A stretch of 44,997 nt of DNA from Gammaproteobacteria bacterium CG22_combo_CG10-13_8_21_14_all_40_8 (GCA_002770795.1 PCTP01000174.1:4615-49611); one strand, 5' to 3'; shown: positions 3,859 through 35,649, counted from the first letter of the stretch. A program made the numbers and translations. The notes: generated from the letters alone by a model not told the origin.

Positions 3859-3860
3859 CT

Positions 3861-5207: not shown

Positions 5208-5304
5208 ATGGCCTCATCAAGTTCGAAGTTGAAATTTAAGGCATAAAACTACGGACGATCTGTTTAACTTTAGTCGATATTTAATTATTTTTCCATTTTT
5301 GTAA

Positions 5305-6663: not shown

Positions 6664-7831
6664 GAGGCAAATACTCCTTATTCACAAAAAGAGTCCAGTT
6701 TGGCAACTGTTCGAGTAATCTTTGCCATTCTTCTAAATCAGATTGCTTCAGGGATTGTAATTGCTCCCCTTGCCAATCCATAGGGCAAAGATAGCCACAA
6801 CCTAGCTTCAAAAAATCTTCAAGTTCCCCTAAAGGAGGTTCCCATGCTCTTGTGAGTACTAGCTGCTTTTGGGTACAACTTATGGTGTTGTATTGTTGTG
6901 CTTCTGTCGCTGTGGGATCTGAGATCATTTCGTCGATAAAATACCGCGTCATCAGATCTTCATCACTTAAATTTTCCGCATCAGCTTGGGTAGAACGAAG
7001 ATTTTGACTGATCAGTTTTCTCGGCACTTGCCCCCAATTGTTTAACACCAAAGGAGGAATTAGTTGATGCGTGATAATCGATTGATTGGGACTAGCTGGT
7101 TCCCTGATATCAGGTTTGATCTGCCGTTTTTGAAGCTTTATTTCGAAATCATTCTCATAGGTTAAATGTATCCAAACCCTCAACGAGACAAAAACGATGC
7201 TTCTTAAAAAAAGACTATAAAAAAGTTGTGTGGCCAAGATAAACTTCCACCATAATCCCAAATTAGACGCCACATTATGGGTTTCAAGTAGACGCGAATC
7301 TTGAGTCTGTGTTAATAATGTGAAATCGGGTTGCGCCTGTTGCCAAAAATACCAAGGTTTAGCAATCCATTGTAGAAAAGGAAAAATATCTGTGGCATCT
7401 AATAGGGTGCTGCGCCATATAAAATTGATATCGGTAACGAGCAACAAAAACACAAAGGTCAATAAACTGGCGATTGAAAATGCAAGGGCAGCGGCCTGAC
7501 TTTGCATTAACAACCAAAACTTATCCAAATGATATTGCCTGAGTTTAACCCACTGTGGCGATGATTTTCGCTGCAATCCAGGAATGGCATAAAGCAAACC
7601 GGCAAGATTAAGTCCCTTTCCAAACAACGCACTGCCAAGGGAAACGATGATACTCAAAATAGGGATGAGCATGTAAACCACCAAAAGATGAAACAGATTC
7701 ACTCGACCCTGAGCATCACCAGTTAAACTGCCCCAACTCAGTATAAAGCCCAAGGAGGCCCCGATAGAAACAATGAGCCAGCTTAATTTAAGAGGATGTA
7801 AATCAAAGGTATTATTCACAGATATGCACAC
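6656..7831 (-). CDS. Polytopic membrane protein, DUF2868-like (conserved partner of the DUF3482 GTPase)
   Basis: GTG start at 7831. About 6 hydrophobic segments lie in the N-terminal 220 aa, followed by a soluble C-terminal region (…WEPPLGELEDFLKLGCGYLCPMDW…). Overlaps and is co-oriented with the GTPase gene. Confidence 0.5.
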   Translation of the reverse strand: MCISVNNTFDLHPLKLSWLIVSIGASLGFILSWGSLTGDAQGRVNLFHLLVVYMLIPILSIIVSLGSALFGKGLNLAGLLYAIPGLQRKSSPQWVKLRQYHLDKFWLLMQSQAAALAFSIASLLTFVFLLLVTDINFIWRSTLLDATDIFPFLQWIAKPWYFWQQAQPDFTLLTQTQDSRLLETHNVASNLGLWWKFILATQLFYSLFLRSIVFVSLRVWIHLTYENDFEIKLQKRQIKPDIREPASPNQSIITHQLIPPLVLNNWGQVPRKLISQNLRSTQADAENLSDEDLMTRYFIDEMISDPTATEAQQYNTISCTQKQLVLTRAWEPPLGELEDFLKLGCGYLCPMDWQGEQLQSLKQSDLEEWQRLLEQLPNWTLFVNKEYLPHE

Positions 7832-8377: not shown

Positions 8378-8452
8378 TGGAGCGGGAAACGAGGCTCGAA
8401 CTCGCGACCCCAACCTTGGCAAGGTTGTGCTCTACCACTGAGCTATTCCCGC
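8378..8452 (-). tRNA. tRNA-Gly (anticodon GCC), CCA encoded
   Basis: The reverse complement reads GCGGGAATAGCTCAGTGGTAGAGCACAACCTTGCCAAGGTTGGGGTCGCGAGTTCGAGCCTCGTTTCCCGCTCCA. Acceptor stem GCGGGAA/TTCCCGC, anticodon loop CTTGCCAAG, T-arm GGTTCGAG-type. Nearly identical to E. coli tRNA-Gly(GCC) as I recall it. Confidence 0.93.
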
Positions 8453-8592: not shown

Positions 8593-9492
8593 CTATCTAA
8601 ATAGTACCTCTTGTAGCATTCTATCACAATGATAGTGCCACTCAGACAAAACAACCCCAAATGCTTGTTCAATTTTGTCAACACAAAGTTTCGAGTTTAA
8701 AGGGCGTGTTGCGGCGACTGGGTATGCACTTGAGGGAATGGGATGGATCTCTCGACATTGAATGGATACACCATTAGGGCCTTCTTTTGCTTTAGACAAA
8801 ATATACTCTGCGTAATCAAACCATGTTGTAGCTCCTTTGGCTACAAGATGGTAAATACCAGAAAGATCTAGGGGATCTGTATCTTTAGCTTGCGCAATTT
8901 GCCTTAAGCAAAGTGCACTTACATCGGCAATTAATTCTGCGCTTGTTGGCGCCCCTTGTTGATCGGCTACAATATTCAACTGTTCTCTTTCTGCAAATAA
9001 ACGTAACATGGATTTTGCAAAATTTGCACCTCTTGTGGCATACACCCAACTGGTTCTGAAAATAAGATGGTTACAACCTGAATCAATAATCGACCTTTCT
9101 CCAGCCAATTTGCTTTTGCCATAAATAGACAATGGATTCACTTCTTCGGTTTCCTTGTAGAAGCCTTCCTTATTACCATCAAAAACATAATCAGTGGAAT
9201 AATGAAGCAACCAAGCGCCTAGATTAAAAATTTCCTGTGCCATCACAGCTAAAGCCTCTGCATTAATGGCATAGGCATTGGCTTGATCAGTTTCCGCTTT
9301 ATCCACTGCGGTATAAGCAGCCGCATTGACTAACCAATCGGGTTTATGTTGACGGATAACATACCTTAAAGCGTCTGCATCAGATAAATTAAGTTGTGAG
9401 CGATCTAAGGAGATTAAAGTCCCCAATGGCGCAAGCGCACGTTGTAACTCCCAACCCACTTGACCATTTTTACCCAGTAGTAATATTTTCAT
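8593..9492 (-). CDS. rfbD: dTDP-4-dehydrorhamnose reductase
   Basis: MKILLLGKNGQVGWELQRALAPLG, NAAAYTAVDKAE, HYSTDYVFDG, YGKSKLAGE, IFRTSWVY and QQGAPTSAELIAD align along the full length with E. coli RfbD/RmlD from memory. Confidence 0.88.
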   Translation of the reverse strand: MKILLLGKNGQVGWELQRALAPLGTLISLDRSQLNLSDADALRYVIRQHKPDWLVNAAAYTAVDKAETDQANAYAINAEALAVMAQEIFNLGAWLLHYSTDYVFDGNKEGFYKETEEVNPLSIYGKSKLAGERSIIDSGCNHLIFRTSWVYATRGANFAKSMLRLFAEREQLNIVADQQGAPTSAELIADVSALCLRQIAQAKDTDPLDLSGIYHLVAKGATTWFDYAEYILSKAKEGPNGVSIQCREIHPIPSSAYPVAATRPLNSKLCVDKIEQAFGVVLSEWHYHCDRMLQEVLFR

Positions 9493-9507: not shown

Positions 9508-10641
9508 TTAATTAAATATTGCTAATAAAGTATTAAACAATATGTCTTTGTCTTTTAATGCCATTTTGCTATGAAATGGGATGCCTAAACAGTTTCTATT
9601 GAGATCGTTGGTTACAGTCATTGCCGTCGCGCAAGAAATAGGAGAGATAGCGCTTTCAGAATAAATTGGCATTTTATGAACGGCTGGACAATACCATTTT
9701 CTCGTTTCAATTTTAGCTTCAATAAATTTTTCACAAACCAAATCCATGGACATAAATTGATCAAATTTAATCACATAGGTACTGGGAGCAAATTCAAAGC
9801 GATCATCAATAGCTTGTAGAGTGAGAGGTAATTGATACGAAAGAATAAAATGATTATAGTCTTTCCACATTTGGTGCTTTAAAGATTTGATCGCTTGCCA
9901 ACGTCGCATTTGTGCTAAACCAACCGCTGCATGATATTCACTCATTTTAGCATTGTATCCATCCACCAAAACTTGAAAGTTTTTTAAGCCAAAATTACTC
10001 ATAAGCCGACATTTTTCGATGAGATTTTCCTTGGCCGAAATAATGAGCCCCCCCTCTCCGATAGCAAAGTTTTTGGTGGCGTGAAAACTGAAGGTATAAA
10101 TACATTCAGTTCCAATAGATTGGTGCCCAAAAGCCGCAGCAGCATCAACTACAACAGGTAACGCAAACTTTAAGGAAAAACTATCCCATAATTGACTATC
10201 TACAGGACTGCCTAAGGCTGCCACAGTTAACACAGCATCTATTTTATGCTTAGGTAACAAAGCTTCAACAATTGATGGCGTAAGCTGCCAAGTTGCTACA
10301 TCCACATCAGCAAGCATAGGTTTTAATCCAGCTTCTATAATAGCAGAAACTGTAGCAGGAAAAGTAAAGGACGGAACTAAAATGGTGGATTGGGGTTTTA
10401 AATTTAGAGACTTGAGTGCCAAAACAATAGCAGAAGTGCCATTGGAACAGGTTGTAAGATTTTGTGATTCACAATCAAAGCTAGCAACGGATTGAATCAA
10501 TTGGCAAAGTTGTTGTTCGAATTGTAGAACTAAGGGACCATAATTTGAATACCAAAGATTATGATCTATCTGCTTTAACCAAGGGTAAAGCTCATCTGCA
10601 CTTGGCAAGTCAGGGATCAGCAACTTTAATGTCTGGTGCAT
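9508..10641 (-). CDS. DegT/DnrJ/EryC1/StrS-family PLP-dependent sugar aminotransferase
   Basis: Fold-type I sugar aminotransferase layout. NGTSAIVLALKSL, VPSFTFPATVSAI, and the PLP-lysine context FSFHATKNFAIGEGG. Confidence 0.85.
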   Translation of the reverse strand: MHQTLKLLIPDLPSADELYPWLKQIDHNLWYSNYGPLVLQFEQQLCQLIQSVASFDCESQNLTTCSNGTSAIVLALKSLNLKPQSTILVPSFTFPATVSAIIEAGLKPMLADVDVATWQLTPSIVEALLPKHKIDAVLTVAALGSPVDSQLWDSFSLKFALPVVVDAAAAFGHQSIGTECIYTFSFHATKNFAIGEGGLIISAKENLIEKCRLMSNFGLKNFQVLVDGYNAKMSEYHAAVGLAQMRRWQAIKSLKHQMWKDYNHFILSYQLPLTLQAIDDRFEFAPSTYVIKFDQFMSMDLVCEKFIEAKIETRKWYCPAVHKMPIYSESAISPISCATAMTVTNDLNRNCLGIPFHSKMALKDKDILFNTLLAIFN

Positions 10642-10704: not shown

Positions 10705-11439
10705 TCAAAACTTTCCTCGAATAAACAACCCAATAAACTGCAAAAGTCTTAACTGTCTTGAGATCCTTGTTGGTTGAACAACTAGTCGAAACAACCATTC
10801 TAAATGAATACGTTGCATCCATCGGGGCGCTCTTTTAACCTCATCAACAAAAACATCGTAACTCCCCCCGACACCTATATATAAGGTGTTCGGGTATTTT
10901 TCCCTACATTCAGCAATAAATTTTTCCTGTTTTGGCGATCCCATGGCAACACAAACAATTTGAGCCCGACTTTTAGTAATTTGTTCGATGATAAGTCCAT
11001 TATCATCGAAATACCCTGAGTGGGCACCCACAATATTAACATGATATTGCTGTTGTAATTTTATTTGTGTTAGGGCGTTCACTCTCTCTGAAGCCCCTAA
11101 TAGATACACAAAGGACTGATGCACACCTGCCTTCTGCATAAGGGACTCCCAAAGTTCACATCCTGGAATTCTTTTACCTGCCTTTCCTTTTCTACTCATT
11201 AACCACACAACGGGTATACCATCGGCAAAAGCCACTGTGGATGTAGAAATCAGTTGCTTGTATGCGGGATCCTGATAACAAGTGACCAGTTTTTCTGCAT
11301 TGATTGCCACAGCAAATCCTGTTTTGATCTTGCCACTTGTGTTGTAAAAAGAATCAGCTGCAGAATTCACTTCTAAAAAAGGTTGAATAGCTAAATCCGC
11401 AAGAGTAATTTTAGAGAGTTGTTTAACTGTGGTGTTCAT
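10705..11439 (-). CDS. WecG/TagA/CpsF-family glycosyltransferase (GT26), likely ManNAcA/ManNAc transferase
   Basis: Family-typical blocks ADGIPVVW, IPGCELW, VYLLGA, VCVAMGSPKQEKF, GVGGSYDVF, KRAPRWMQRIHLEWLFRLVVQPTR. Confidence 0.85.
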   Translation of the reverse strand: MNTTVKQLSKITLADLAIQPFLEVNSAADSFYNTSGKIKTGFAVAINAEKLVTCYQDPAYKQLISTSTVAFADGIPVVWLMSRKGKAGKRIPGCELWESLMQKAGVHQSFVYLLGASERVNALTQIKLQQQYHVNIVGAHSGYFDDNGLIIEQITKSRAQIVCVAMGSPKQEKFIAECREKYPNTLYIGVGGSYDVFVDEVKRAPRWMQRIHLEWLFRLVVQPTRISRQLRLLQFIGLFIRGKF

Positions 11440-12409
11440 GATACCAATCTCTAAAAGTGATAAATTGATTCGTTGTTATAGTCTCTTGTAAAAACAACTT
11501 TAACTGTGACAAAGAGCACTCACTAAATGCTTTGGGATGCCCCATAATAACCATGTGTTTGTGTTTTTGCTTCCAAGTATCATAGGCTTTCATTAACAAT
11601 TTCGACTTGTATCCATCAATAGAAATCACTGACATTGAGGGAATGCTGAGCAATTTAAGGATATTAGATAAGGGGGATTCAACCGCTTTTCCATCACCAA
11701 ATGATCGATGAGTTTGCTTGTTTATTAGTTTAGCAACGACCATTCGCCAATAGAACAAAGGGGAAACTTTCATGCTTGCAATAGGTAATTCTATAAAGTG
11801 CCCCCGATTTTTCGCGACCAAAGGATCATCATCAAAATGCCAATAATCCATTATCGGGGCGTTGCGAAAATCAAATTTCTGGCCAGGTGATTGTAGATAG
11901 CCACCAGGAAAAACGGAACTATCCATTTTAATACCCTGTTCGTATAAAATGTTAGATAAAATATCAAAAGGTTGTATACACCATCCACCAGCACGATAAG
12001 CAATGGGATGAATATTAAATTCTTTCACTAGAATTGTCTTATACTTCTCAACAATTTTTGCAATAGTTTCAGTGTCAAACTGTTGAAGGCGATATCTTGT
12101 ACTAGGTAATAATATTTCTCCATCACCTTCTTTGGCATCTTCCCAATGAGGATGTATGTGCAATTGAATATCATGCCCTGCAGCCAGAATTACTTGAAGT
12201 TGCAGAATAACCATTGATCTATCATCATGCAATGACGGCATATCTAAAGAATGAAAAAGATACCCTGCATCCACGAAAAAGGTGGCTTTAACACCAAAAT
12301 CATCTAACAGTGCCAGTAGTTTATTGGTAGGCTCGATCAAACACTTTTGAGCAGTTCCAATATTTCGCCCCAAGAAGAGTTCGTAATCTAAGGTTAATAA
12401 TATCTTCAC
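11423..12409 (-). CDS. Polysaccharide deacetylase-like protein (CE4-like)
   Basis: N-terminal LTLDYELFLG is the equivalent of the CE4 TFDD/DVED motif. GHDIQLHIHPH is a His-rich metal motif, and YRAGGW is the equivalent of the R-x-P-Y/F motif. The GTG start shares a GTGA 4-nt overlap with the upstream sulfotransferase stop. Confidence 0.55.
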   Translation of the reverse strand: MKILLTLDYELFLGRNIGTAQKCLIEPTNKLLALLDDFGVKATFFVDAGYLFHSLDMPSLHDDRSMVILQLQVILAAGHDIQLHIHPHWEDAKEGDGEILLPSTRYRLQQFDTETIAKIVEKYKTILVKEFNIHPIAYRAGGWCIQPFDILSNILYEQGIKMDSSVFPGGYLQSPGQKFDFRNAPIMDYWHFDDDPLVAKNRGHFIELPIASMKVSPLFYWRMVVAKLINKQTHRSFGDGKAVESPLSNILKLLSIPSMSVISIDGYKSKLLMKAYDTWKQKHKHMVIMGHPKAFSECSLSQLKLFLQETITTNQFITFRDWYHEHHS

Positions 12410-13266
12410 AGTTTATATCGATTTAGCAAGTTCAATGGGAAAGTTAAGAAATAACCTATCCATCGTTTGAAAAGTGGAAGTTCATCGCACCATCCATCAT
12501 GAGATTGAAACTGAATAGAAGCCTTTTTAGCCAAACGATTTCCGCCGATGATATGGCCTATGTCAAAAAATTGTTCTGTCTGAATTTTGGTTAAAATAGA
12601 GATACAATCCAGATCTGTAAAGTTAGCGATATTTTGAAATACAGATTTTGGATCATTTAACAAATCTTCATATTTTACTTTTAATACTTTATTTTTTAAG
12701 AGTGTTCTGGAAATTATTTCAGCAGTAAAATTCACTAGATTATAATAAATACAAGCACTCATTAATCCTCTTGATGTTTGCACATTCTTGGCAAAGGAAT
12801 GAATAACCCCTCTAGGATCACGAACTAAATAGATATATTTTACATCTAAATTATCACATTTATTTAAGGCCAGGGCCCTGCCTATATATTTAGATGAGTC
12901 GATCACTCTTTCTTGATCGCAATGTTGAAGGATCTCAGAAAATAATTCTTCATGAAAATTTTGGTAGCATGATGGTAATTTATATGCAAAAAAATATTTA
13001 AAAATATTTATATGCTTTTCTAGAGTTCTCGCACGCTCTTGTGTCTCTTGCTCCAAAGATTTTAAACAAGAAATTTGTGACCAACATATGCAATCCGAAA
13101 GTAAACTACCGCAGCTACATTGGCTTACAGCTAAATTTCCATGGTTTAGTTGGGTTAACTCCCCTACTTGAATGGCACTTTTAGCAGCTCCCAAGAATAC
13201 ACTTAACGCCGTGCTGCCACTACGTCCTGCGCCCATGATATAAAGAATTTTAGATTTTTTCTGCAT
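12406..13266 (-). CDS. Sulfotransferase (PAPS-dependent, Sulfotransfer_3-like)
   Basis: 5'-PSB loop [12 protein letters not shown]. 3'-PB motif [14 protein letters not shown]. Cys cluster [14 protein letters not shown] moved the start to the ATG at 13266 ([19 protein letters not shown]), because the track ORF extends 84 nt further into the upstream acetyltransferase gene. Confidence 0.8.
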
Positions 13267-13777
13267 GACGATACTTAATGACTTTTGCAGGGTTTCCAAC
13301 AACAACAGCCCAAGCGGGTACATTTTTTGTGACCACAGCTCCGGCTCCAATCACAGCATGATCTTCAACAATTATGCCAGGTAGAATAATCACATTCGCG
13401 CCTATCCAAACATCATTCATTATACGAGTCTCTTTTCTGCTCTTGCCTTGCTGTTGAATATACTGATGACAATCATCAAATTTATGATTTCTGGTATAGA
13501 TTTTCACATCTGGTCCCATTATCACATAGTCCCCGATAGAAACATTGGCATGAATCAAACAATTTTGCCCCAATTCAGAATGGTTACCTATACGAATATT
13601 AGGAGAAATATCTGCATTATATTTCACTCGAATATTGTCTCCACAATTCACAACAAACTGTTTAACCAGAAGTCTACGAATACGGTGAAAGCCTAAAGAA
13701 TAAGGTCGATAATCTTCTGGCGTAAACCTGAAAAAGGCGATGTATAAAAAATAAGCCAGCTTTCTATAAAGACTCAT
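13250..13777 (-). CDS. Hexapeptide-repeat (left-handed beta-helix) O-acetyltransferase, WcaF/maltose acetyltransferase-like
   Basis: Hexapeptide repeats ([31 protein letters not shown] ... [45 protein letters not shown]). Confidence 0.85.
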
Positions 13778-14822
13778 TGGTACCTGCCATTTCTGTATAA
13801 ATAGCCATTAATTTATCACAAACCCTATCTAATGAATAATCAGTGTTAGATTGTATACATCTAACACTCATCTGTTGATAGTCTTCCTGAGATAGAAAAT
13901 GGGCTTTTACTAGCTGTTCCACTAAAGACTCTGTATTGATTTTTTCTAATAAAAATCCGTTAGATCCATCCTGAACTTGCATTTTTGGCCCAACCAAAGG
14001 GGTAGTAATTACAGGTATTCCACAATACATGGCTTCCGTAATCACCAATCCAAATGCTTCCTTGCGAGTAGGCAATACTAAATATCGACTTTTCCTGACA
14101 TAATTGGCAATAGTGGACTGTTCGGCGTCTTCGATAATGGTTACTTTATCTGGATGTGACATGGCCTGAATAGCGCACAACTCAGTCCCCGAACCGATAA
14201 AACAAAACGAAGGATATAACCCTGATTTTGTACCTAACAATTCTATAGCCTCTAGTAACATATCTAAACCTTTGGCCTTATAGAAGGAGCCTACAAAAAC
14301 AAAATCATACAACTTTTCTTCATTTTTTGGGAAAAAGATACTTCTATCAATTCCAGCAGGTATAACAGAACTCACTTTTCTATGATAAACATTTTCAAAT
14401 TCGTCAGCAATTCCAGTACCTACCGATAAAATCTGATCCACATAAACTAATCCCTTTTTCGTCAAATACCTGAATAATGTATTCTTGTAGGAAAAAGTGA
14501 CATCGTTTCCGTGTAATGTCATTAATACATGACTACCCCGTAGACGACTTTTCAATAATAAAATTAATAGAATATTAGGAAATAAAAAATGAAAATGTAC
14601 AACCTCAAACTTTATTTTTAGTTTTTGACGTAAATTGAGAAAATAGCTAATATATTTTATAAGACTTCCAATTTTTCCTGTGTTTTTTCTTTGCAAGAAA
14701 CATTGATAAAACTCGATATCTGGCCAGTTTTTTTTGAAAAAATTTAGCTGATTAACAACAAATATACCCGCATATTTTTTATGTTCTGAAGGCGCATTAT
14801 TGGATGCTATGAGTATTTTCAT
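13764..14822 (-). CDS. Glycosyltransferase family 4 (GT-B, retaining)
   Basis: C-terminal E-x7-E region [25 protein letters not shown]-terminal MKILIASN...GIFV. ATGA overlap with the upstream gene stop. Confidence 0.85.
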
Positions 14823-15772
14823 TGATTAAAACTCAATCTTCTTAAAATTGCATCTAATGGATTTTTTAATCTTGATAAGTTCAAAATTAATGCCAAAGGC
14901 ATTTTCAAAAAATACCATAATATTTTAAACCAATATAAAACCACCCAACCACCTATAGGCTTCTCTTTATAACCAGCCTTGTTTAAGAAATCAGATAAGG
15001 TTTTTTGGATCCAATACACATCAGAGCAGGGTAATTCTGCCATCCATTTTTCTGAGTTATTAGCATTAATGTGAGTATAGTTGATATCACCTAGAGTACA
15101 TTTCAAATAAGCGGACAATTCATTAAGAACCAGCTTAGGCTGTTGGGTCAACCTTTCATATTGAATAATGAAACAATGCTCTCCCTTACTTGTATTGGCA
15201 ATTTCAAAAGATCTAGCCCAAAGTTTGGCCATAAGAATCGGGTTATAATTTAGCCAAAGCCTCAAAGCTTCCCAATAACGCTTTTTCCTAAGATAATTTT
15301 TATATTTCTTCTTTTGGCTTAAAATACAATCTCTTGGGTCCCTTAACAAAAATACAAACTTAAACCGATCAGATAAGGTTAAAAATTCATCGATATAATA
15401 AATATTTCTAGGTGTACTGTCCAAGCAGTGGCTGTATTGACCTCTTATTAGCTGCAAAATTGATAAATAAAGCTGTGCGCCTTGGGTTATCTCACCATTA
15501 TTTATGCTGTTTTTCAATTGAGCTAAAAGACTTTCTCTATAATCATTTTCTTGAAACAATCCTTCTCCATAGGCTAACTTCATCATTTGTTGTTGAGCCA
15601 TTTTATTGAGTGTTTTTGGGTCTATCCTTGAGGTATCTTTGATATTCCAGATATTTTCCACAAATTGTAATTCTGGTGTATATTGAGCCAAATTTGCCTG
15701 ATGTAATATTTTGTTTAAGAGCTTAGTACCGCTCCTGGCATAGCCTGTAATCATGATAATAGCTGTATTCAC
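14819..15772 (-). CDS. Sulfotransferase (PAPS-dependent)
   Basis: 5'-PSB MITGYARSGTKLL. 3'-PB FVFLLRDPRDCILS. Hydrophobic/amphipathic C-terminus (GGWVVLYWFKILWYFLKMPLALIL). The start is placed at the GTG at 15772, which forms a GTGA overlap with the upstream stop as at other junctions in this operon. The track's TTG at 15805 and the ATG at 15754 are alternatives. Confidence 0.8.
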   Translation of the reverse strand: MNTAIIMITGYARSGTKLLNKILHQANLAQYTPELQFVENIWNIKDTSRIDPKTLNKMAQQQMMKLAYGEGLFQENDYRESLLAQLKNSINNGEITQGAQLYLSILQLIRGQYSHCLDSTPRNIYYIDEFLTLSDRFKFVFLLRDPRDCILSQKKKYKNYLRKKRYWEALRLWLNYNPILMAKLWARSFEIANTSKGEHCFIIQYERLTQQPKLVLNELSAYLKCTLGDINYTHINANNSEKWMAELPCSDVYWIQKTLSDFLNKAGYKEKPIGGWVVLYWFKILWYFLKMPLALILNLSRLKNPLDAILRRLSFNQ

Positions 15773-16779
15773 TTTGCAACGCCTCTCAGAGGATAATCGC
15801 GGCAAAGTGATTGATATAACTTAAGGCAATGATTTTCAACGAATTTAATTTGTTCGGGTGACAATTCATACTTCCATTTGCCTATATTCTTAACATCTAT
15901 GGGTTTCTGCGTATTCCTATGATGGTGGTATTTTTCTACGTCCCCTAGATTTTCTTGATCCAACCAAAACTTTAACATAGACTCTTGAAAATCAACGCCT
16001 AAATAGTCGCAAACGCTTTGCATTGTTGATTTAGGTTGTCTAATCAAATCCTCATAATGAATCACTAAAAAGCATTCTTTCCCCAAATTCTTTTTATTTT
16101 TTTCTATGGTGCCATGCGCTTTTAGCCAAAACCACACAATATAATCCGCTTCATTCATCGACTTTTTTGAAGCAAGTCCTGATTTTATATAAGATGCAAA
16201 AACTGCTCTGGGATCTCGGATTAAATGGATATATTTAGCCTTTGGAAAAAGCGCTTGGATATGATCTATAAATTGCGAATTTTTTGGTGTCTTGTCTCCC
16301 CATATCATCGCATCCTGAGGGATAAATTGTTGCGATTTTTCTACGCGATGCAGGCCATAGTTCAGGTATATCATTTCGATGATGTTAGCCAAACTTTGCT
16401 GTTTTTCGGGAAGTGCTTGGCAACTTTGTAAGGTTTTCTCTAGAGAAATATTCCAAGTACTAAATTCAGGATGCTTTTCAAATCCGTTAATTACCATTGA
16501 AGTTAATTGGTTCCAAGGTAAATATGCCTTACGATAAAACTTTCTGATTATTTTTGGAAGAACATAAGATTCTGGAGGAATAACAATCTGAGGATCTTTT
16601 GTTAACATAGTCCGCAACAAGGTACTTCCCGAACGCCCACATCCCAAAATAAAAAAGGGAGTTAAACTCTCATTACTCGATAAAGAATACCTTTTATCAA
16701 AAAAGTGGACGTGAGACTGAATTCTTAGATACCATCGAATCCATTTGAAACCAGGAGACAATAAATAACCTAATTTCAC
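15769..16779 (-). CDS. Sulfotransferase (PAPS-dependent)
   Basis: 5'-PSB FFILGCGRSGSTLLRTML. 3'-PB YIHLIRDPRAVFASY. GTG start in a GTGA overlap with the upstream stop. Confidence 0.85.
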   Translation of the reverse strand: MKLGYLLSPGFKWIRWYLRIQSHVHFFDKRYSLSSNESLTPFFILGCGRSGSTLLRTMLTKDPQIVIPPESYVLPKIIRKFYRKAYLPWNQLTSMVINGFEKHPEFSTWNISLEKTLQSCQALPEKQQSLANIIEMIYLNYGLHRVEKSQQFIPQDAMIWGDKTPKNSQFIDHIQALFPKAKYIHLIRDPRAVFASYIKSGLASKKSMNEADYIVWFWLKAHGTIEKNKKNLGKECFLVIHYEDLIRQPKSTMQSVCDYLGVDFQESMLKFWLDQENLGDVEKYHHHRNTQKPIDVKNIGKWKYELSPEQIKFVENHCLKLYQSLCRDYPLRGVAK

Positions 16780-17777
16780 GACAAACTATCCTTTTCAGAT
16801 TGAGCACTATAACCATATTGTGCAAGACTTATTCCTAAAAGTTTCTCTAGCTTTGAGTTACTCAGGCAATACAATTCACGAAGATTGGACTTTTGTTCAC
16901 TAGAAAGTAAGGAGAGATACCGATACTTGCGAGGAATGAAACGATCTATCCCCTCGTACAATTTCTTAAAAATCACATCGATATAAGGGATATGGATAAA
17001 GGAATGCCTGGCAATAGGATCATGTCGTGATAATCGATTGAAAACCTTTGCTAAAATTAAAGACAAATTACTTAAACTTTTATTGCTTGTTTTTTGTCCA
17101 TCCAGCAATTTTAACCCATCTCTTATTGCTACTTCCAATTTTTGAGAACCTAAAAGTTTCCCCAATTCAGCATAAACTTCATTAGGCTTCTCACAAAATT
17201 TCTCATAAGGTAGTGCCAATACATTTTTTTTACTCATTTTACGCTGTAGATGCTCTATCGCATCATGATACATAAAGTGTTCTAATGAGAAAGCAGCAAA
17301 TCGGTGTCTAACAGCAGACTTAGGCGGGTAAATATAATTTTGGATGGAATAACAGCCTCCTTTTTTAACATATTGACGGTAACATGATTCAATCATGGAG
17401 GTTTGCTCCCTGAAGAAGAGCAAAATGTATAGTTCCACACCCTCAATTGCCGCTATTCTTTCGATCACCTCATAAGTAATACTGCCACCATTTCCTCCAG
17501 TGTGGATATTGCCTAATAATTCCTCATCTGAAATAACATTCATTTTATTGGGGTCGATAACCTGGGCAAGCCACTCATTGAGAGCCTTTGCAGAGAAATT
17601 ATAGGGTGTTTTCTCTAAAAAATGTGCTTGTGATTGCAATCTATCAATTAAATTAAAACAAGGTATGCTGAAAACTTGGCGTTGCCAAAATGTTGTGGCG
17701 GTTTTATGATATCCCATATGAATCAACAGCTTGGGCTTTTTTGGCACAATATTTTCTGTAGAGTTCAATGGGTTCAT
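16776..17777 (-). CDS. Probable divergent sulfotransferase-fold protein
   Basis: The P-loop-like LIHMGYHKTATTFWQ and the downstream LLFFREQTSMIESCYRQY match the positions and spacing of the 5'-PSB (K-T-x-T-T) and 3'-PB (R-x6-S-x-Y) motifs. It is the first gene of the sulfotransferase run. The family assignment is weaker than for its neighbours. Confidence 0.5.
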   Translation of the reverse strand: MNPLNSTENIVPKKPKLLIHMGYHKTATTFWQRQVFSIPCFNLIDRLQSQAHFLEKTPYNFSAKALNEWLAQVIDPNKMNVISDEELLGNIHTGGNGGSITYEVIERIAAIEGVELYILLFFREQTSMIESCYRQYVKKGGCYSIQNYIYPPKSAVRHRFAAFSLEHFMYHDAIEHLQRKMSKKNVLALPYEKFCEKPNEVYAELGKLLGSQKLEVAIRDGLKLLDGQKTSNKSLSNLSLILAKVFNRLSRHDPIARHSFIHIPYIDVIFKKLYEGIDRFIPRKYRYLSLLSSEQKSNLRELYCLSNSKLEKLLGISLAQYGYSAQSEKDSLS

Positions 17778-17976
17778 TTTAGTTAATTAAAGCCTTTAAG
17801 CCAGCAGTCATCATATTTGAAATATAAGTATTGAAATAAATTCAAACTTATCGCGGATAGAGATATTGAATCATATCCTAAATTGGTTAATTTCTCAGTA
17901 TAAGCTTACACAAAAGCCATAATCAGGAAAAATATGCTAATATCCATGCAAATTAAACTCACATTATCAACCTCAC

Positions 17977-19341
17977 TTGAACAAGCAATCTCACTCAGGT
18001 TTGAATAAATTGATTTCTGCCCTCAAGTCAGACAAACGCTTTCATGAAATATTTAGAGGCGGTGCCTATGTACTGATTGCCAAAGGCATTGTGAGCCTCT
18101 TAGGCCTTTTCACAAACTTATTTATGGCTCGTTATTATGGCGCTGAGATTATCGGTTACGTAGCCACAATTAACTCTATATTAGCCATATTGATTACGCT
18201 TTCCTTATTAGGTAACCAAACCGCTATATTAAGATTTATCCCAGAATTCCTCAATAAATACAATTTCAAAACTACTTATCTGTTGATTCGAAAACTTGCC
18301 TTGGTGATTTTACTTATGGCAACTCTTTTAACTGTTATCTTTGTATTGAATCTTTCACAAATCAGTGCGAACTTGTTTCACAAACCTGTTATCGAACAAC
18401 CTTTATTCATCAGTCTGCTATTTTTGCTCGTATTTTCTCTGATGGCCTTCAGTCAACAAGTGCTTAGAGGATTAAAGCTCATTCACCAATATGTTTTGAA
18501 TTTAATCACCATTCCTCTACTCAACTTGTTGTTATTAATTCTATCAACCTTTTTCTTTTATCATACTTTCAATGCGATATACACAAGGGTGATAGCGACT
18601 CTTTGTGTGGCGATTTTTAATTTTGCTCTGATACACCGCTACTTCCATCTGCAAGTTAGTTTGAACGCTAGCAGTATTCAATTCGATACTAAACCTCTAC
18701 TTATCACGGCTCTACCTATGTTAGCAACGACTTCCCTAGCGACGATTATGGGTCAAGTTGATACTTTGATGATTGCTAAATACCTCCCTGCAACGCAAGT
18801 GGGCCTGTATCACGTGGCGTTAAAAATTGCACTTTTAACCACATTAATTATTCAATCCGTTAACACCCTATCAGCCCCCAATTATTCAGAATTATTCCAT
18901 ACAAAACAAACTCAAGAGCTCAGAAAAATTATTACAAAAACATCCATTCTGCTCTTTGTTCTAGTATCACCGATATTCTTAATCTTTTTCTTTTTTGGAG
19001 ATGCTATTATTTCTTTAACATTCGGACCAATATTTAGTGCGAGTAATTCTAGTCTATTAGTGTTAGTGAGCGGATTCTATATCGCTACTTTATTTGGCTC
19101 TAACTCATTATTTCTTTCCATGACAGGCCATCAAAATACCTTATTAGTATTAATTCTGATCACATTTATCTTAAATGTGTTACTAAACACTCTACTCATA
19201 CCAAAATTTGGAATTGTTGGTGCAGCCATAGCAACCTCCAGTTCCATTTTTATAAAAAACCTAATGGCAACCTTATTTATCTATCACCGCCATCGAATAA
19301 ATACCTCTATATTTAGCCTTGAGATTTTACGGCATGAATAG
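17977..19341 (+). CDS. Wzx-like oligosaccharide flippase (MOP superfamily polysaccharide biosynthesis protein), copy 1
   Basis: 454 aa and hydrophobic throughout, with about 12-14 predicted helices. Sits in polysaccharide-locus context. TTG start in the track, so the start is uncertain. Confidence 0.75.
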   Translation: MNKQSHSGLNKLISALKSDKRFHEIFRGGAYVLIAKGIVSLLGLFTNLFMARYYGAEIIGYVATINSILAILITLSLLGNQTAILRFIPEFLNKYNFKTTYLLIRKLALVILLMATLLTVIFVLNLSQISANLFHKPVIEQPLFISLLFLLVFSLMAFSQQVLRGLKLIHQYVLNLITIPLLNLLLLILSTFFFYHTFNAIYTRVIATLCVAIFNFALIHRYFHLQVSLNASSIQFDTKPLLITALPMLATTSLATIMGQVDTLMIAKYLPATQVGLYHVALKIALLTTLIIQSVNTLSAPNYSELFHTKQTQELRKIITKTSILLFVLVSPIFLIFFFFGDAIISLTFGPIFSASNSSLLVLVSGFYIATLFGSNSLFLSMTGHQNTLLVLILITFILNVLLNTLLIPKFGIVGAAIATSSSIFIKNLMATLFIYHRHRINTSIFSLEILRHE

Positions 19342-20173
19342 AAAAAAACGCTTATTTTCAAATCGAATTCTATTAGAACTCATTTTGTGGTTTAGAGTTC
19401 TTTTAGTAAAGATTTTAATCAGGAGATCTCAACCCGATTTTATGATCATTGGTGCTCAAAAATGTGGCACTACCTCACTTTTTAACTACATCTGTCAATA
19501 TTCAACGAACTTCAAACCTCCATTAGTCAAAGAAACACAATTTTTTACGCAAAATTATGCAAAAGGTTTAGACTATTACTACGCTCACTTTCCATTATTT
19601 AAGTCCCCCACACAGATCACTGGAGAAGCAAGTCCAACCTATTTATTCTTTAAAAAGGCTGCAAAAAGAACACATCTGCATTTTCCACAACTGAAATTAG
19701 TGGTTTTATTGAGAGATCCTGTTGATAGAGCCTATTCTCATTATCATTTTTCCATGCGTAATTTGCCAGAATCACAAAAAATAAGCTTTGAAGAAGCATT
19801 AGAGAGAGAGGACAAACTTAATTTTCAGACATATTCTGATTATTTGTCTACTGCAGAAAAAAAATCCTCGTATAAATCAAGAGGATTGTATGCTGATCAA
19901 ATAGAATATTGGCTTGAGTTTTTCAATATGGAAAATATTTACTTTATTGAAGCCGATGAACTTAAAAAATCACCAGATAAAATACTCACCAATCTTTTTC
20001 TATTTTTAGGTTTAAAAAAAGAAAATTCAGCCGATTTCAACAACTTAAAAAAATACAATCGGAATAGTTACCCTAATATGGCAACAAAGACACAAGGCGC
20101 CTTAAGGAAATTTTTTCAAGCTCCCAATCAAAAGCTATTTGCATTATTGAATAAAACTTATCCTTGGAAATAA
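19334..20173 (+). CDS. Sulfotransferase, Sulfotransfer_1 (heparan-sulfate sulfotransferase-like) type, with N-terminal hydrophobic anchor
   Basis: 5'-PSB FMIIGAQKCGTTSLFNYI. 3'-PB VVLLRDPVDRAYSHYHF. The N-terminus NRILLELILWFRVLLVKILI is hydrophobic. The ATG at 19334 overlaps the flippase TAG (ATGAATAG). The track ORF begins 15 nt upstream at a TTG. Confidence 0.85.
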   Translation: MNRKKRLFSNRILLELILWFRVLLVKILIRRSQPDFMIIGAQKCGTTSLFNYICQYSTNFKPPLVKETQFFTQNYAKGLDYYYAHFPLFKSPTQITGEASPTYLFFKKAAKRTHLHFPQLKLVVLLRDPVDRAYSHYHFSMRNLPESQKISFEEALEREDKLNFQTYSDYLSTAEKKSSYKSRGLYADQIEYWLEFFNMENIYFIEADELKKSPDKILTNLFLFLGLKKENSADFNNLKKYNRNSYPNMATKTQGALRKFFQAPNQKLFALLNKTYPWK

Positions 20174-20260
20174 ATTACCGCATAGGCATCTATACTTTGT
20201 GAAATTTTGCTATACTCCTGATCTTGTCTGTCAAAACTCTTTAATTAACTAGTATCCCTT

Positions 20261-22162
20261 ATGTACAAGACTAATATATTCAAGAACATAGCCCTAAAGG
20301 TGCTATCTTTAAGCAGACAAAAAAAACAAATTATTGCCATGCTTTTTGATTTTATAGCATTGACTACCGCTTTTTTAATCTCATGGCGTCTCACTAATCA
20401 TCGGCTAGCATTAGAAACCTCATTATTATTTGCTTTCTTACTGCTCACCAACTATTTGGCTACATTATTTCTTTTTCATCGTTTCTCTGTCTACAAAACC
20501 GTCGTTCGATATCTGGATCTCACCGTTCTAACAAGCATTTTTGCAAGTTTGTTTGTTGGTTCACTGATGTTTTATCTTATCTTGTATTATTTTAATATCG
20601 CACGGCCTTTAGCACTTTCTATTATATTTTTAGCCTCTAGTCTCCTTATCATTTCTGGTACTCGTTTGGTTGTTCGAGCCCTGTTAAGATATATTCACCC
20701 CAGTAACCTCAAACGAGTTCTAATATATGGCGCTGGATCCGCAGGAAGACAACTTTCTGCGGCTTTAAAGCGAGGAAATGAATATTCACCTATCGCCTTT
20801 ATGGATGATGATCTCTCTCTACAAGGTACGAAAATAGAAGGCTTAACCGTTTATTCAGTAGCCGAAATAAAAAGTCAAATCACCTCTTTGAGGGTAGATG
20901 TTATTCTTTTAGCCATGCCCAGAAACTCATCTCAAAAACAACGTGTTTTGGTCACTGAACTGGAATCACTTCAAGTCGAAGTTAAATCATTACCTAGTTT
21001 TGCAGATTTAGTCAGCGGTAAAGCGAAAATTGATGAATTACGCGATGTACAAATTGAAGATCTACTCGGACGTGACGCAGTATTTGCCAACCCAGATCTT
21101 CTGACACAATGTATCATCCATAAAAATGTATTAGTCACAGGTGCAGGAGGTTCAATTGGCTCTGAACTCTGTAGACAGATTATTCAACTTTCACCAAAGA
21201 CACTGATCCTCTTTGATGTCTCTGAATTTAATCTCTACCAAATTGAACAAGAATTACTTCAACAACAATCAGACACTAAAATATTTGCTGTATTGGGTAG
21301 CATACAAAATAAATCACGACTTCTATCCACTCTAACCAGCTTCAAAGTTGAAACAGTTTATCATGCGGCAGCCTATAAACATGTTCCCATGGTTGAACAG
21401 AATACTATAGAAGGAGTCAGAAACAATATATTCGGTTCGCTCAATACAGCACAGGCAGCCATTGAAGCGGGCGTTGAGGTTTTTGTTCTGATATCGACAG
21501 ACAAAGCTGTTAGGCCTACCAATACTATGGGTGCAACGAAAAGAGTTGCTGAGTTAATTTTACAGGGACTCAATAGCCAAAATCATTCAACCAAGTTTTG
21601 CATGGTTCGATTTGGAAATGTCCTAGGTTCTTCTGGTTCTGTAGTTCCTCTATTCCATAGACAAATTAGAGAAGGTGGCCCCATTACTGTCACAGATCCC
21701 AAAATTATTCGCTATTTTATGACAATCCCAGAAGCTGCCCTATTAGTTATTCAGGCAGGTTCAATGGCCAATGGCGGGGATGTTTTTGTTCTCGATATGG
21801 GAGAGCCTGTTTTAATACATGACTTAGCTAAAAGAATGATCGAATTATCAGGCCTAGAAGAAAAAACAGAAGAAAACCCTGATGGCGATATTGAAATAAT
21901 ATTCACTGGTCTTAGACCAGGAGAAAAACTCTATGAAGAGTTATTAATCGGGGAGAATAACGTGACCAGCACTCAACATCCTAGAATTATGAGTGCTCAA
22001 GAAAGCTTTATGAAATGGGAAGAACTACATCAACTTTTAGGGCAGTTAGACATTGCTTGCTCTGACAGAAATGCATCAAAAATTAGGCAGTTACTTATTA
22101 ATGCCCCAATTGACTTTAGGCCTATTTCTTCCAATAGTGATCATTTGGAAAATCATCATTAA
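20261..22162 (+). CDS. Membrane-anchored UDP-HexNAc 4,6-dehydratase (CapD/WbpM/PglF family)
   Basis: Four N-terminal TM helices. Rossmann motifs YGAGSAGRQL and VTGAGGSIGSEL. SDR core STDKAVRPTNTMGATKR, then FGNVLGSSGSV and MTIPEA, as in the CapD/PglF family. Confidence 0.9.
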   Translation: MYKTNIFKNIALKVLSLSRQKKQIIAMLFDFIALTTAFLISWRLTNHRLALETSLLFAFLLLTNYLATLFLFHRFSVYKTVVRYLDLTVLTSIFASLFVGSLMFYLILYYFNIARPLALSIIFLASSLLIISGTRLVVRALLRYIHPSNLKRVLIYGAGSAGRQLSAALKRGNEYSPIAFMDDDLSLQGTKIEGLTVYSVAEIKSQITSLRVDVILLAMPRNSSQKQRVLVTELESLQVEVKSLPSFADLVSGKAKIDELRDVQIEDLLGRDAVFANPDLLTQCIIHKNVLVTGAGGSIGSELCRQIIQLSPKTLILFDVSEFNLYQIEQELLQQQSDTKIFAVLGSIQNKSRLLSTLTSFKVETVYHAAAYKHVPMVEQNTIEGVRNNIFGSLNTAQAAIEAGVEVFVLISTDKAVRPTNTMGATKRVAELILQGLNSQNHSTKFCMVRFGNVLGSSGSVVPLFHRQIREGGPITVTDPKIIRYFMTIPEAALLVIQAGSMANGGDVFVLDMGEPVLIHDLAKRMIELSGLEEKTEENPDGDIEIIFTGLRPGEKLYEELLIGENNVTSTQHPRIMSAQESFMKWEELHQLLGQLDIACSDRNASKIRQLLINAPIDFRPISSNSDHLENHH

Positions 22163-22175: not shown

Positions 22176-24008
22176 CTAAATGCAGTCATGTTCAATATTC
22201 GAATAAAAAATCTCATTCCAAAGATGAACCTGATAAAGCCTAAACATGAATCTTTCATATTTAGGCATAAGTAAAGTTGTACTATTAACATAAGTTTTGA
22301 CATTTTTAGAAAAAATTGGCCAATCAAAGATTGGAGATGTCTCCAAATCAAGAACCATCTTCTTTTTAGTTTCTAACTTTATATTTGAAGAAAATCCAAT
22401 TTTTTTCCTTTCTAGTTGTTGACGAAAAACCTGATAGCCAGTTAATTTCCTCAGTACATATTTATTCTTCGCATTCCAAATTTTTAGTTTATCTCCATAT
22501 TTAAAAACAAAATCTACCAGCCGGTGATCCATAAATGGTGAGCGATTCTCAACAGAATTATTCATTGCAACAATATCACCATAATAAAGTAAATTAGAAA
22601 GTCCTTTGGAGTGTTGCTGCATTAAATAACCATTTATGTCTGTACGTTTATTTGGAGCTACACTATCTTCCTCTAACAGAGTCTTTTCCGAATCTTTGAA
22701 ATCAGAAAAGAATTTCTCATAGCCGATAAAATTTCGTAGAACTTTTTTACTTGGCTCACTTAAATTAGTACGTAATGACAACTTTAATGAACTTAAGAAT
22801 CCATCTTTTATCATGTCTTTAGTTAAAAGATATGCCTGTTTGAACTGCATAGATTTAAGATAGTAGGGTAATAAAACTAAGAAATAGGTTTTGTATCCCC
22901 CTAGTAACTCATCTGCTCCTTGCCCATCCAGGCTAACTTTTATATTTGAACTTGCAATTTTTTCATATAAATAATCAATTGATACAATTGCTGGTGAAGA
23001 ATGTCCCTTGCCCAGATGTTGTACTAATCGCTTTAACCTTAATATATAATCATCTGGATTATTATCCTGTTTACTTATAACTAAAGACATTTTTAATTGA
23101 TTAGCAATAATTTGTGCATACTGGCTTTCATCATTGTGATCTTCTGACGCATATGTAAATGCTAGTATTTTTTCATTTGTATTTTCTTTTCGCATGTAAT
23201 ATGCAACTAAAGTACTATCTATTCCACCAGAAAGTAGTACGCTTAGAGGGACATCTGCTCTTAGTCGTAGTTTGACAGAATCTTCAAATAAATGTTCAAA
23301 TTCATCAAAAACCTTATCATTAGTTTCAGCTATAGCTCCATCAAAATATTTCCAATAACTATTTTTCTCTATTGAACCATCTGATTTTACTTTCCAATAC
23401 TCAGATTTTGGGAAGGTTTTTATGTCTTTAAAAAAAGTTCTCCCACCTAAATCAGCATCGCCTTCTTTCAGAAAACTTTGGATCATAAAATAATCAACCG
23501 CCAACTGTTTTTGCATTGTTAACTGTTGAATTTCACTCGCAAAATAAAGAACATCATCACTTTGCATATAAAATAAAGGCTTTTGACCAAATCTATCTCT
23601 TGATACATAAATTTCTTTAGAATGAGTATCATAAATCACCAACGACCACATACCATTAAAATGAGAAAAACACTGTTCTCCCCATTTGTGAAATGATTTT
23701 ATCACCACTTCGGTATCTGAATCGGTATCGAAGTGGTAGCCATGACATTCTAATTCGCTTCTTAGTTCTATATAATTAAAAATCTCCCCATTATAAATCA
23801 TTTTCAGATATTCAAAATAAAATGGCTGATTTCCACTTTCCTGTAGACCGATGATAGACAGTCTTGTATGACCTAAGAAGCAGCGTTCATCGCTTTCATA
23901 TCCGATATGGTCTGGACCTCTATGTTTGACTTTTTCTATTGCTTTTATACAGTTTTCAATATTAAGCGCTTTCTTAGAGTAATTAAAAGCCGTAAAAATA
24001 CCACACAT
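22176..24008 (-). CDS. Asparagine synthase (glutamine-hydrolysing)-like amidotransferase; in this context probably a uronic-acid amidotransferase (WbpS/WbtH-like)
   Basis: N-terminal nucleophile MCGI. GATase_7 blocks HRGPD, NGEIFNY, SDTEV. PP-loop SGGIDST in the synthetase domain. Confidence 0.88.
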   Translation of the reverse strand: MCGIFTAFNYSKKALNIENCIKAIEKVKHRGPDHIGYESDERCFLGHTRLSIIGLQESGNQPFYFEYLKMIYNGEIFNYIELRSELECHGYHFDTDSDTEVVIKSFHKWGEQCFSHFNGMWSLVIYDTHSKEIYVSRDRFGQKPLFYMQSDDVLYFASEIQQLTMQKQLAVDYFMIQSFLKEGDADLGGRTFFKDIKTFPKSEYWKVKSDGSIEKNSYWKYFDGAIAETNDKVFDEFEHLFEDSVKLRLRADVPLSVLLSGGIDSTLVAYYMRKENTNEKILAFTYASEDHNDESQYAQIIANQLKMSLVISKQDNNPDDYILRLKRLVQHLGKGHSSPAIVSIDYLYEKIASSNIKVSLDGQGADELLGGYKTYFLVLLPYYLKSMQFKQAYLLTKDMIKDGFLSSLKLSLRTNLSEPSKKVLRNFIGYEKFFSDFKDSEKTLLEEDSVAPNKRTDINGYLMQQHSKGLSNLLYYGDIVAMNNSVENRSPFMDHRLVDFVFKYGDKLKIWNAKNKYVLRKLTGYQVFRQQLERKKIGFSSNIKLETKKKMVLDLETSPIFDWPIFSKNVKTYVNSTTLLMPKYERFMFRLYQVHLWNEIFYSNIEHDCI

Positions 24009-24147
24009 TGATGACCCCTAAAGGAATTTTGATTTTTAAAATCGGTACTTATACTTATGCCACCTCAAAATGCAGGTAGCACGAGTATATCACTTTGTTT
24101 GAGATGAAGAATCTTGTTACATAATTATCGTGAATTCACATAAAATA

Positions 24148-25959: not shown

Positions 25960-25972
25960 AATGATTTTTCCT

Positions 25973-27798: not shown

Positions 27799-27801
27799 AA
27801 A

Positions 27802-30848: not shown

Positions 30849-30850
30849 AG

Positions 30851-35631: not shown

Positions 35632-35649
35632 TAATTTTCTCTATATATA

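Follow-up and report, generated by a model that had tools for sequence, protein, structure and literature searches.

A stretch of 44,997 nucleotides (referred to in full as the window) from Gammaproteobacteria bacterium CG22_combo_CG10-13_8_21_14_all_40_8, an uncultivated host represented by a Crystal Geyser-type groundwater metagenome-assembled genome (MAG), carries five sulfotransferase genes embedded in a polysaccharide cluster at 12.4-20.2 kb. These genes and their products are designated A, B, C, D and E. Three of them, A, B and C, are consecutive and overlapping, and their products are assigned by sequence and structure to different, anciently diverged subfamilies: A resembles the heparan sulfate enzymes and has a Lys loop, B resembles TPST, CurM and OLS and has an Arg loop, and C combines an Arg loop with a putative C-terminal anchor. 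We consider it likely that all five enzymes, A to E, act before export on a repeat unit linked to undecaprenyl diphosphate (Und-PP) and place sulfate at different positions or on different sugars. Each enzyme may have a distinct regiospecificity, and the polysaccharide of this bacterium is probably heavily sulfated.

Organization of the sulfotransferase genes

The five genes are arranged as follows (aa, amino acids; GT4, glycosyltransferase family 4).

16776-17777, minus strand: sulfotransferase A, 333 aa, ATG start; first gene of a ten-gene minus-strand operon
15769-16779, minus strand: sulfotransferase B, 336 aa, GTG start within a GTGA overlap
14819-15772, minus strand: sulfotransferase C, 317 aa, GTG start within a GTGA overlap; its stop codon shares an ATGA with the start of the GT4 gene
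12406-13266, minus strand: sulfotransferase D with the Arg loop GAGRSGST, 286 aa when started at M29, Pfam Sulfotransfer_3 at 1.1e-13; 4-nt overlap with the deacetylase-like gene
19319-20173, plus strand: sulfotransferase E, 279-284 aa, Pfam Sulfotransfer_1 at 2e-24, similar to NDST and to the heparan sulfate 3-O-sulfotransferases (3-OSTs)

A sequence-only reading of this DNA had described A, B and C as back-to-back open reading frames (ORFs) joined to one another and to the next gene by GTGA, GTGA and ATGA overlaps. The coordinates, the coding-strand tetranucleotides (GTGA at A/B, GTGA at B/C and ATGA at C/GT4) and independent gene calls all agreed with this description. Identical genes of 333, 336, 317 and 352 aa, with identical overlaps, were called independently on four public contigs whose DNA matches the window at 99.9% identity. 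These contigs differ from the window by 5-10 single-nucleotide polymorphisms across 8-13.5 kb, their protein variants are at most one residue apart, and a population dN/dS test for selection gave no result. The GTG start of C is backed by its ortholog in a syntenic locus, L001, whose alignment begins at residue 1; that of B by the ortholog in locus L059, which starts within an ATGA overlap with the upstream A homologue; and the M29 start of D by the L001 ortholog. In GenBank, A (PIP80033.1), B and C are all labeled as hypothetical proteins.

The junctions from A onward measure -4, -4, -4, -14, -17, -4, -17, +63 and +15 nt. The unbroken overlapping block comprises eight genes, namely A, B, C, GT4, a hexapeptide acetyltransferase, D, the deacetylase-like gene and a WecG-type gene, which are followed by DegT and RmlD genes. 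Since the overlaps run on through five junctions past A, B and C, the tight packing is a trait of the whole operon and is not specific to the sulfotransferases. The three genes had also been called a fused run. The overlap part of that description holds, as the 4-nt junctions were read directly, while the notion of fusion does not: the genes are separate ORFs, and the overlaps continue as far as the WecG-type gene. Shine-Dalgarno-like sequences lie inside the upstream gene ahead of B (AAGGA, -14 to -10 of the GTG) and of C (GAGAGG, -15 to -10 of the GTG); the sequences ahead of GT4 are weak. Translational coupling would be compatible with the overlaps and with the sequences preceding B and C. 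It is probably through the interlocked start and stop codons that the modifying enzymes are expressed together with their glycosyltransferases.

Identity and divergence of the sulfotransferases

The amino acid sequences were inspected for the 5'-phosphosulfate-binding (5'-PSB) loop, G-x-x-K/R-x-G-T/S-T/S after strand 1, and for the 3'-phosphate-binding (3'-PB) motif, R...S. All five proteins carry both, with consistent spacing. The loops quoted in the sequence-only reading were found where expected: GYHKTATT at residues 22-29 of A (Lys type), GCGRSGST at residues 46-53 of B (Arg type) and GYARSGTK at residues 10-17 of C (Arg type). The 3'-PB motif of A is REQTSMIES.

Protein A scored below threshold against Pfam Sulfotransfer_1 (E 0.0056, 16.5 bits versus a cutoff of 22) and had no match in NCBIfam. 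Twenty homologues were present in a set of 5.8 billion proteins, almost none of them with a Pfam domain. Their alignment conserves the motifs HIGYHKTGTTF and RNQxxMIESCYRQYVKKGG, and K25, R123 and S131 are kept across the family. A profile built from these 20 sequences matched PDB entry 3rnl, an Alicyclobacillus sulfotransferase, at 2.8e-8. When the AlphaFold2 (AF2) model of A (predicted local distance difference test score, pLDDT, 83.5; predicted template-modeling score, pTM, 0.82) was searched with Foldseek, all of the 50 best PDB matches had the sulfotransferase fold, the top ones being 3rnl (TMt 0.72), the sulfotransferase domain of NDST1 and the heparan sulfate 3-OSTs. In hhalign comparisons the A family reached 88% probability against E and 5% against B. 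A single-sequence PDB search had proposed dihydropteridine reductase as a relative (E 0.025); this match was spurious and was superseded by the family profile and the structure model. The family profile and the model identify A as a divergent sulfotransferase fold of the heparan sulfate type, in spite of its sub-threshold Pfam score. The earlier reading had envisaged that the 16776-17777 product might have some other fold, and the family profile, the AF2 model and Foldseek all returned the sulfotransferase one. At its C-terminus A carries an additional helical region, roughly 100 residues long and conserved in the family, with motifs of its own (NxSLSN, TNRF, DPI and SN). Members were located at 51 genome loci in many phyla, including Bacteroidota, Desulfobacterota, Planctomycetota, Cyanobacteria and Bacillota (Thalassobacillus, Marinococcus). 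Widespread as it is, this sulfotransferase family is mostly overlooked by Pfam and NCBIfam.

The remaining proteins are recognized by Pfam. B passes Sulfotransfer_3 at 1.4e-37 (130.5 bits versus a cutoff of 27), has at least 368 homologues and matches in the PDB the sulfotransferases of OLS (4gox, 9.8e-23) and CurM (4gbm, 3.6e-16) as well as TPST1 (1e-13). It is classed on these matches as a TPST/CurM/OLS-like Sulfotransfer_3 enzyme; its match to the NoeE model is partial, at 54 bits versus an equivalog cutoff of 500. C passes the same domain at 1.8e-17 (64.8 bits versus a cutoff of 27). The top Foldseek matches of its AF2 model (pLDDT 95.7) are all sulfotransferases, namely CurM, OLS and TPST, and it also matches the Stf9 fold weakly. 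An exhaustive HMMER search for the C family returned 684 representatives at E<=1e-3, most of whose alignments extend to residue ~313; R13, S14, G15, T16, R144 and S152 are invariant in the family. E, which has a Lys-type 5'-PSB loop, matched 3rnl at 5.7e-24, 3-OST-1 at 1.2e-20 and NDST1 at 1.6e-18.

Global amino acid identity is 24-28% within A, B and C and 19-30% over all five proteins. By BLASTP, B and C are related at E=2e-10, and the A-B and A-C comparisons were not significant. At the DNA level the sulfotransferase genes have just one stretch in common, a 39-nt segment shared by D and B (79%), which spans the 3'-PB motif, and a DNA repeat search revealed no duplication or insertion scars flanking B. 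The proposal that the three genes are mutually divergent, and not close paralogues from a recent tandem duplication, is borne out by the low identity, the scant DNA similarity and the separate subfamilies.

Predicted membrane association

Hydrophobic termini were evaluated with KD19, the maximum 19-residue Kyte-Doolittle hydropathy, for which the usual transmembrane threshold is 1.6. The segment of interest in C is the following.

14834-14953, minus strand: C-terminal tail of C, residues ~274-313, candidate membrane anchor

This tail begins with some 20-25 hydrophobic and aromatic residues that have a P-x-K in their middle and continues with a basic LNLxRxKN....I.RRL sequence, and it is predicted by AF2 to form helices at 277-301 and 305-313. 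All 40 aligned family members keep it, N298 and R312 being nearly invariant. Its KD19 is at or above 1.6 in 30 of the 40, with a mean of 1.86 versus 0.99 for the core. Anchoring of C in the membrane through this family-wide tail is well supported as a prediction. D has a shortened C-like tail at its C-terminus, and E has an N-terminal hydrophobic segment (KD19 2.03 at residues 16-34) of a kind also present in its L001 ortholog; association of D and E with the membrane is plausible. The sequence-only reading had placed several of the sulfotransferases at the membrane by virtue of hydrophobic or amphipathic termini. For C the claim agrees with the conservation of the tail in its family, for D and E it may be correct, and for A and B it is unsupported.

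The surrounding polysaccharide locus

The genes around the sulfotransferases are listed below.

13764-14822, minus strand: GT4 glycosyltransferase, Pfam Glycos_transf_1 at 3.9e-26; a 52%-identical ortholog likewise follows C in L001
13250-13777, minus strand: hexapeptide-repeat O-acetyltransferase, WcaF/WbbJ/Maa-like
11423-12409, minus strand: divergent polysaccharide deacetylase-like protein of the carbohydrate esterase family 4 (CE4)/NodB type, Pfam Polysacc_deac_1 at 0.0018 (sub-threshold)
10705-11439, minus strand: WecG/TagA-family glycosyltransferase of the ManNAc(A)-transferase type, Pfam 2.6e-51; closes the overlapping block
9508-10641, minus strand: DegT-family sugar aminotransferase at the distal end of the operon, after a gap of +63 nt
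8593-9492, minus strand: RmlD-type reductase at the distal end of the operon, after a gap of +15 nt
17778-17976, no strand assigned: divergent intergenic region between A and Wzx, 199 bp, presumed promoter region
17977-19341, plus strand: Wzx-type flippase, Pfam Polysacc_synt and MurJ, divergent from A
20261-22162, plus strand: membrane-bound UDP-HexNAc 4,6-dehydratase of the PglF/WbpM type, Pfam Polysacc_synt_2 at 7e-126
22176-41981, minus strand: rest of the Wzx/Wzy locus, from Pfam scans

According to Pfam, a complete Wzx/Wzy-type locus occupies ~8.6-42 kb, with Wzx, Wzy, a polysaccharide co-polymerase (PCP, Wzz), an outer membrane polysaccharide exporter (OPX, Wza), an initiating phosphoglycosyltransferase and glycosyltransferases. 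The WecG-type protein matched the NCBIfam N-acetylmannosaminouronosyltransferase model at 5.5e-75, under the cutoff. Between 22176 and 41981, the sugar and modifying genes encode an AsnB-like amidotransferase, a DegT protein, a PglD-like acetyltransferase, two UDP-sugar dehydrogenases, a UDP-GlcNAc 2-epimerase and a hexapeptide transferase; the assembly and export genes encode a small PglC-like phosphoglycosyltransferase, two GT4s, a second Wzx-like protein, Wzy, a Wzz-like PCP and an 885-aa Wza-type exporter. The locus has in total three GT4s plus the WecG-type transferase, and three hexapeptide acyltransferases. The small PglC-like protein is the predicted initiating transferase, and its partners are PglF-, DegT- and PglD-like. 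From this gene content we infer that the product would be an acidic polymer with amino sugars and uronic acids.

Scans of the interval 8-22.5 kb for sigma-70 promoters (46 found versus 51.8 expected) and intrinsic terminators (11 found versus 9.2 expected) were at chance level, so the operon boundaries are based on gene spacing alone. No exact ops/JUMPStart element (GGCGGTAG) was found, and its one-mismatch matches occurred at chance frequency. An exact 13-nt sequence, CTTTAATTAACTA, is located just upstream of the starts of A (17780-17792, minus strand) and of the PglF-like gene (20239-20251, plus strand). The two copies have the same orientation relative to their own genes; about 0.27 copies were expected by chance, which makes the repeat marginally unexpected. 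The sequence is missing upstream of the A ortholog in L001.

Related loci and apparent assembly from modules

A syntenic block with ~50% identity, and without B, is present in a MAG labeled Enterobacterales (L001/L008, JBFFIY010000038.1). Its order is E-Wzx, then A-C-GT4-acetyltransferase-D-deacetylase-WecG-DegT, and at 14422-18002 of L001 the block runs straight into genes for a CysD-like protein, adenosine 5'-phosphosulfate kinase (cysC), a CysN-like protein and a sulfate permease. In terms of context, this linkage is the best argument for the block being a sulfation system. Ahead of the L001 operon lie a transposase gene and an acyltransferase_3 gene. Full-length orthologs of the window proteins found elsewhere are 44-54% identical.

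Pairs of A and B with a 4-nt overlap occur in two unrelated genomes, at locus L059, between Wzx and GT4, and at locus L013, in a groundwater deltaproteobacterial MAG with four sulfotransferase ORFs in a row. Sulfotransferases within 10 kb of an A-family gene were counted at 51 loci, a set that excludes the window, from which the duplicate L008 was dropped and to which L001 was added. About 17 of them have two or more and about 8 have three or more, with five in the cultured Ilyomonas limi 17mud1-8 (L018). Another cultured carrier, Thalassobacillus cyri CCM7597 (L015), has A, B and a third sulfotransferase. These counts show that runs of divergent sulfotransferases are a recurring arrangement. 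GC and GC at third codon positions (GC3) are uniform over the locus, with no compositional sign of a recent acquisition of B. The A-B-C set looks as if it was assembled from modules, and the view of it as an assembled set, already put forward in the sequence-only reading, was strengthened by the recurrence of the A-B pair and by the A-C arrangement of L001.

On one contig (WANG22-1 scaffold_86; L002 and L060), the A and B homologues are in separate polysaccharide clusters ~15-20 kb apart, and a type II secretion operon occupies part of the interval. A heparinase II/III-like gene is found inside the biosynthetic locus of the window (27802-29622, minus strand); it recurs by DegT and B-type sulfotransferase genes in unrelated loci (L059, 4627-6462; L060, 6892-8727).

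Proposed sulfation pathway and alternatives

The activated sulfate donor, 3'-phosphoadenosine 5'-phosphosulfate (PAPS), is made in the cytoplasm, and sulfation must therefore be cytoplasmic. In the pathway that we propose, the repeat unit would be built on Und-PP on the cytoplasmic side of the inner membrane, where the sulfotransferases would draw on cytoplasmic PAPS to sulfate different positions or different sugars. The hydrophobic termini of C, D and E would keep these three enzymes at the membrane. Wzx would flip the unit, and Wzy, Wzz and Wza would polymerize and export it to give a multiply sulfated polymer with amino sugars and uronic acids.

Several observations weigh against this pathway. 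There are no PAPS-synthesis genes (cysD, cysN, cysC) among the window ORFs of at least 100 aa. Hydropathy shows no membrane segment in A or B, and the window copy of the C tail, with a KD19 of 1.46, is just below the threshold. The apparent solubility of A and B would suit sulfation of nucleotide-sugar precursors ahead of glycosyl transfer, the membrane tails being incidental, and so would the location of the sulfotransferase modules, which adjoin DegT, RmlD, PglF-like and acetyltransferase genes. This route is nevertheless highly improbable. The hydrophobic termini of C, D and E are conserved, and the pairing of C with a glycosyltransferase and of D with the deacetylase-like and WecG-type genes points to lipid-linked intermediates. 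We also count against it that, to our knowledge, bacterial polysaccharide assembly offers no example of a sulfated nucleotide-sugar donor.

The relatives of B are a further difficulty for the proposed pathway, as the nearest ones with solved structures modify polyketides bound to an acyl carrier protein and protein tyrosines, not sugars. Moreover, B is absent from L001, and at least one related polymer can therefore do without it. It could be argued from these two facts, from the name "protein-tyrosine sulfotransferase" that the Joint Genome Institute (JGI) gives to several homologues, and from the position of A below the Pfam threshold, that one or more of the enzymes, most plausibly B or A, act on a substrate other than the polysaccharide (protein tyrosine, lipid or small molecule) or are catalytically inactive and have a structural or regulatory role. 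We judge this improbable, since the PAPS-binding motifs are kept in A, B and C, A-B pairs in unrelated genomes are flanked by Wzx and GT4 genes, and the best structural matches of A are carbohydrate (heparan sulfate) sulfotransferases. B itself partly matches NoeE, which sulfates the fucose on Nod factors, the signaling oligosaccharides of rhizobia.

A last point against the pathway is the presence of two Wzx-like genes, at 17977-19341 (plus strand) and 31618-32811 (minus strand), which makes more than one glycan possible. The sulfotransferases could be split over two or more glycans (O-antigen-like plus capsule-like, or like the enterobacterial common antigen), each with one or two sulfates. 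Such a division would find support in L001, where the A-to-RmlD block, Wzx, E and PglF reappear as a unit of their own beside a transposase, and in the two distinct clusters with A and B homologues on the metagenome contig mentioned above. It is an unlikely arrangement, however, because one each of Wzy, PCP, OPX and the initiating phosphoglycosyltransferase was found in the window, the second Wzx-like gene has a weak match to Polysacc_synt (1.3e-7), and A, B and C share one overlapping operon with just two glycosyltransferases. Sulfation of an Und-PP-linked repeat unit by the five enzymes is the explanation that we favor.

The deacetylase-like gene and a possible N-sulfation module

The deacetylase-like gene that overlaps D belongs to a widespread family in which 15 of 24 members match Polysacc_deac_1, the best at 1.5e-9; the window copy matched TIGR03006 at 1e-4. 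The invariant residues of the family are D8, H84/H86/H88, R139 and H291. Its profile had no match in the PDB, CE4 structures included, and the CE4 assignment consequently derives from the Pfam matches in those 15 members. The neighbors of this family were surveyed at 66 metagenome loci (among L061-L140) with enough flanking sequence. Directly upstream of the deacetylase gene are D-type sulfotransferases (23 loci), FemAB-family proteins (16), AAC(3)-type N-acetyltransferases (15) and AsnB-like proteins (4). Directly downstream, a WecG-type transferase is found in 35 of 64 cases and a sulfotransferase in none.

Amino groups are the targets of the FemAB-type and AAC(3)-type partners, a hint that the deacetylase frees an amine for re-derivatization. 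By analogy with these loci, the arrangement suggests, as a lead only, a module that deacetylates and then re-derivatizes the amine; with D as the partner, the outcome would be an N-sulfated sugar. The CE4-type deacetylase would free the amine of a lipid-linked N-acetyl amino sugar, and the abutting, membrane-tailed D would sulfate it. N-acyltransferases of the FemAB or AAC(3) type would occupy the slot of D in other bacteria. A would stand for a family of bacterial, heparan sulfate-like sulfotransferases that lacks annotation and is distributed over many phyla, cultured Thalassobacillus and Ilyomonas included. In its most extended form, this idea describes the product as a hypersulfated, glycosaminoglycan-like polymer made by swappable modules (A-B, C-GT4 and D-deacetylase-WecG), in which the D module is a split, NDST-like N-sulfation system and A a new heparan sulfate-like family. 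We regard that version as doubtful.

Comparison with known sulfation systems

The synechan (xss) cluster of Synechocystis sp. PCC 6803 is of the Wzx/Wzy type and has two sulfotransferases from distinct subfamilies; the number of sulfotransferase genes roughly equals that of sulfates per repeat (PMC8205485). The window resembles it in having a Wzx/Wzy-type cluster with more than one sulfotransferase of distinct subfamilies beside glycosyltransferases. Whereas the two xss genes are non-adjacent and cyanobacterial, the five of the window belong to a gammaproteobacterium, and three of these follow one another with overlaps. Three sulfotransferases and cysNDC are found in the capsule locus of Vibrio sp. 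KMM 8419 (PMC11641403), and a Cobetia locus is similar (PMC11766843). Linked cysD, cysN and cysC have been proposed as a hallmark of sulfated clusters (PMC11641403). The Vibrio locus is, like the window, gammaproteobacterial with several sulfotransferases, and its cysD/cysC/cysN linkage is mirrored in L001. Its export is by an ABC transporter (Kps) and its sulfotransferases are scattered over an 80-gene region, in contrast to the Wzx/Wzy-dependent window, where A-D are in one overlapping operon and cys genes are absent. Candidate clusters for sulfated polysaccharides have also been published for Pontiella (PMC7356697).

The animal heparan sulfate enzymes (NDST and 3-OSTs) are related to E by sequence (1e-18 to 1e-20) and to A by predicted fold, with a Lys-type 5'-PSB loop in both. 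They also have in common with the window a membrane-anchored arrangement, seen in the N-terminal segment of E, and several specificities acting on one glycan, a feature that we propose for the window. They differ in being Golgi-lumenal, while the window enzymes would work at the bacterial cytoplasmic face, and A has the additional ~100-residue C-terminal helical region. The rhizobial and mycobacterial sulfotransferases NodH, NoeE, LpsS and Stf0/Stf9 are bacterial PAPS-dependent enzymes with glycolipid or oligosaccharide acceptors, to which B (partial match to NoeE) and C (weak match to the Stf9 fold) show some resemblance. They are encoded by single genes for signaling lipids, unlike the multi-enzyme set of a Wzx/Wzy locus. 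Clusters of the kind predicted here are thus already known and little studied. The window locus would add more sulfotransferases, a tighter packing and a different lineage, and leaves the concepts unchanged.

Bacterial polysaccharide sulfotransferases are almost uncharacterized. Two sulfotransferases in one cluster were treated as unprecedented in 2021 (PMC8205485), and prokaryotic enzymes acting on glycosaminoglycan-like polymers were stated as not known (PMC7356697). The engineering of microbes to make sulfated glycans is actively pursued (PMC11069525, PMC13353177). The window, with five sulfotransferases of four distinct types beside likely partner enzymes, is a compact source of candidate regiospecific enzymes. 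The analysis also puts the "hypothetical protein" A in a widespread sulfotransferase family and shows that a predicted membrane tail is conserved in the C family.

Boundaries of the locus

A tRNA-Gly(GCC) gene at 8378-8452 (minus strand) is situated in the 760-bp gap between RmlD and a DUF2868-DUF3482 GTPase pair, which marks the edge of the locus. Beyond it, positions 319-7831 encode a hybrid histidine kinase, a response regulator-PAS-GGDEF diguanylate cyclase and the DUF3482 GTPase/DUF2868 pair. Control of the polysaccharide by cyclic di-GMP is conceivable.

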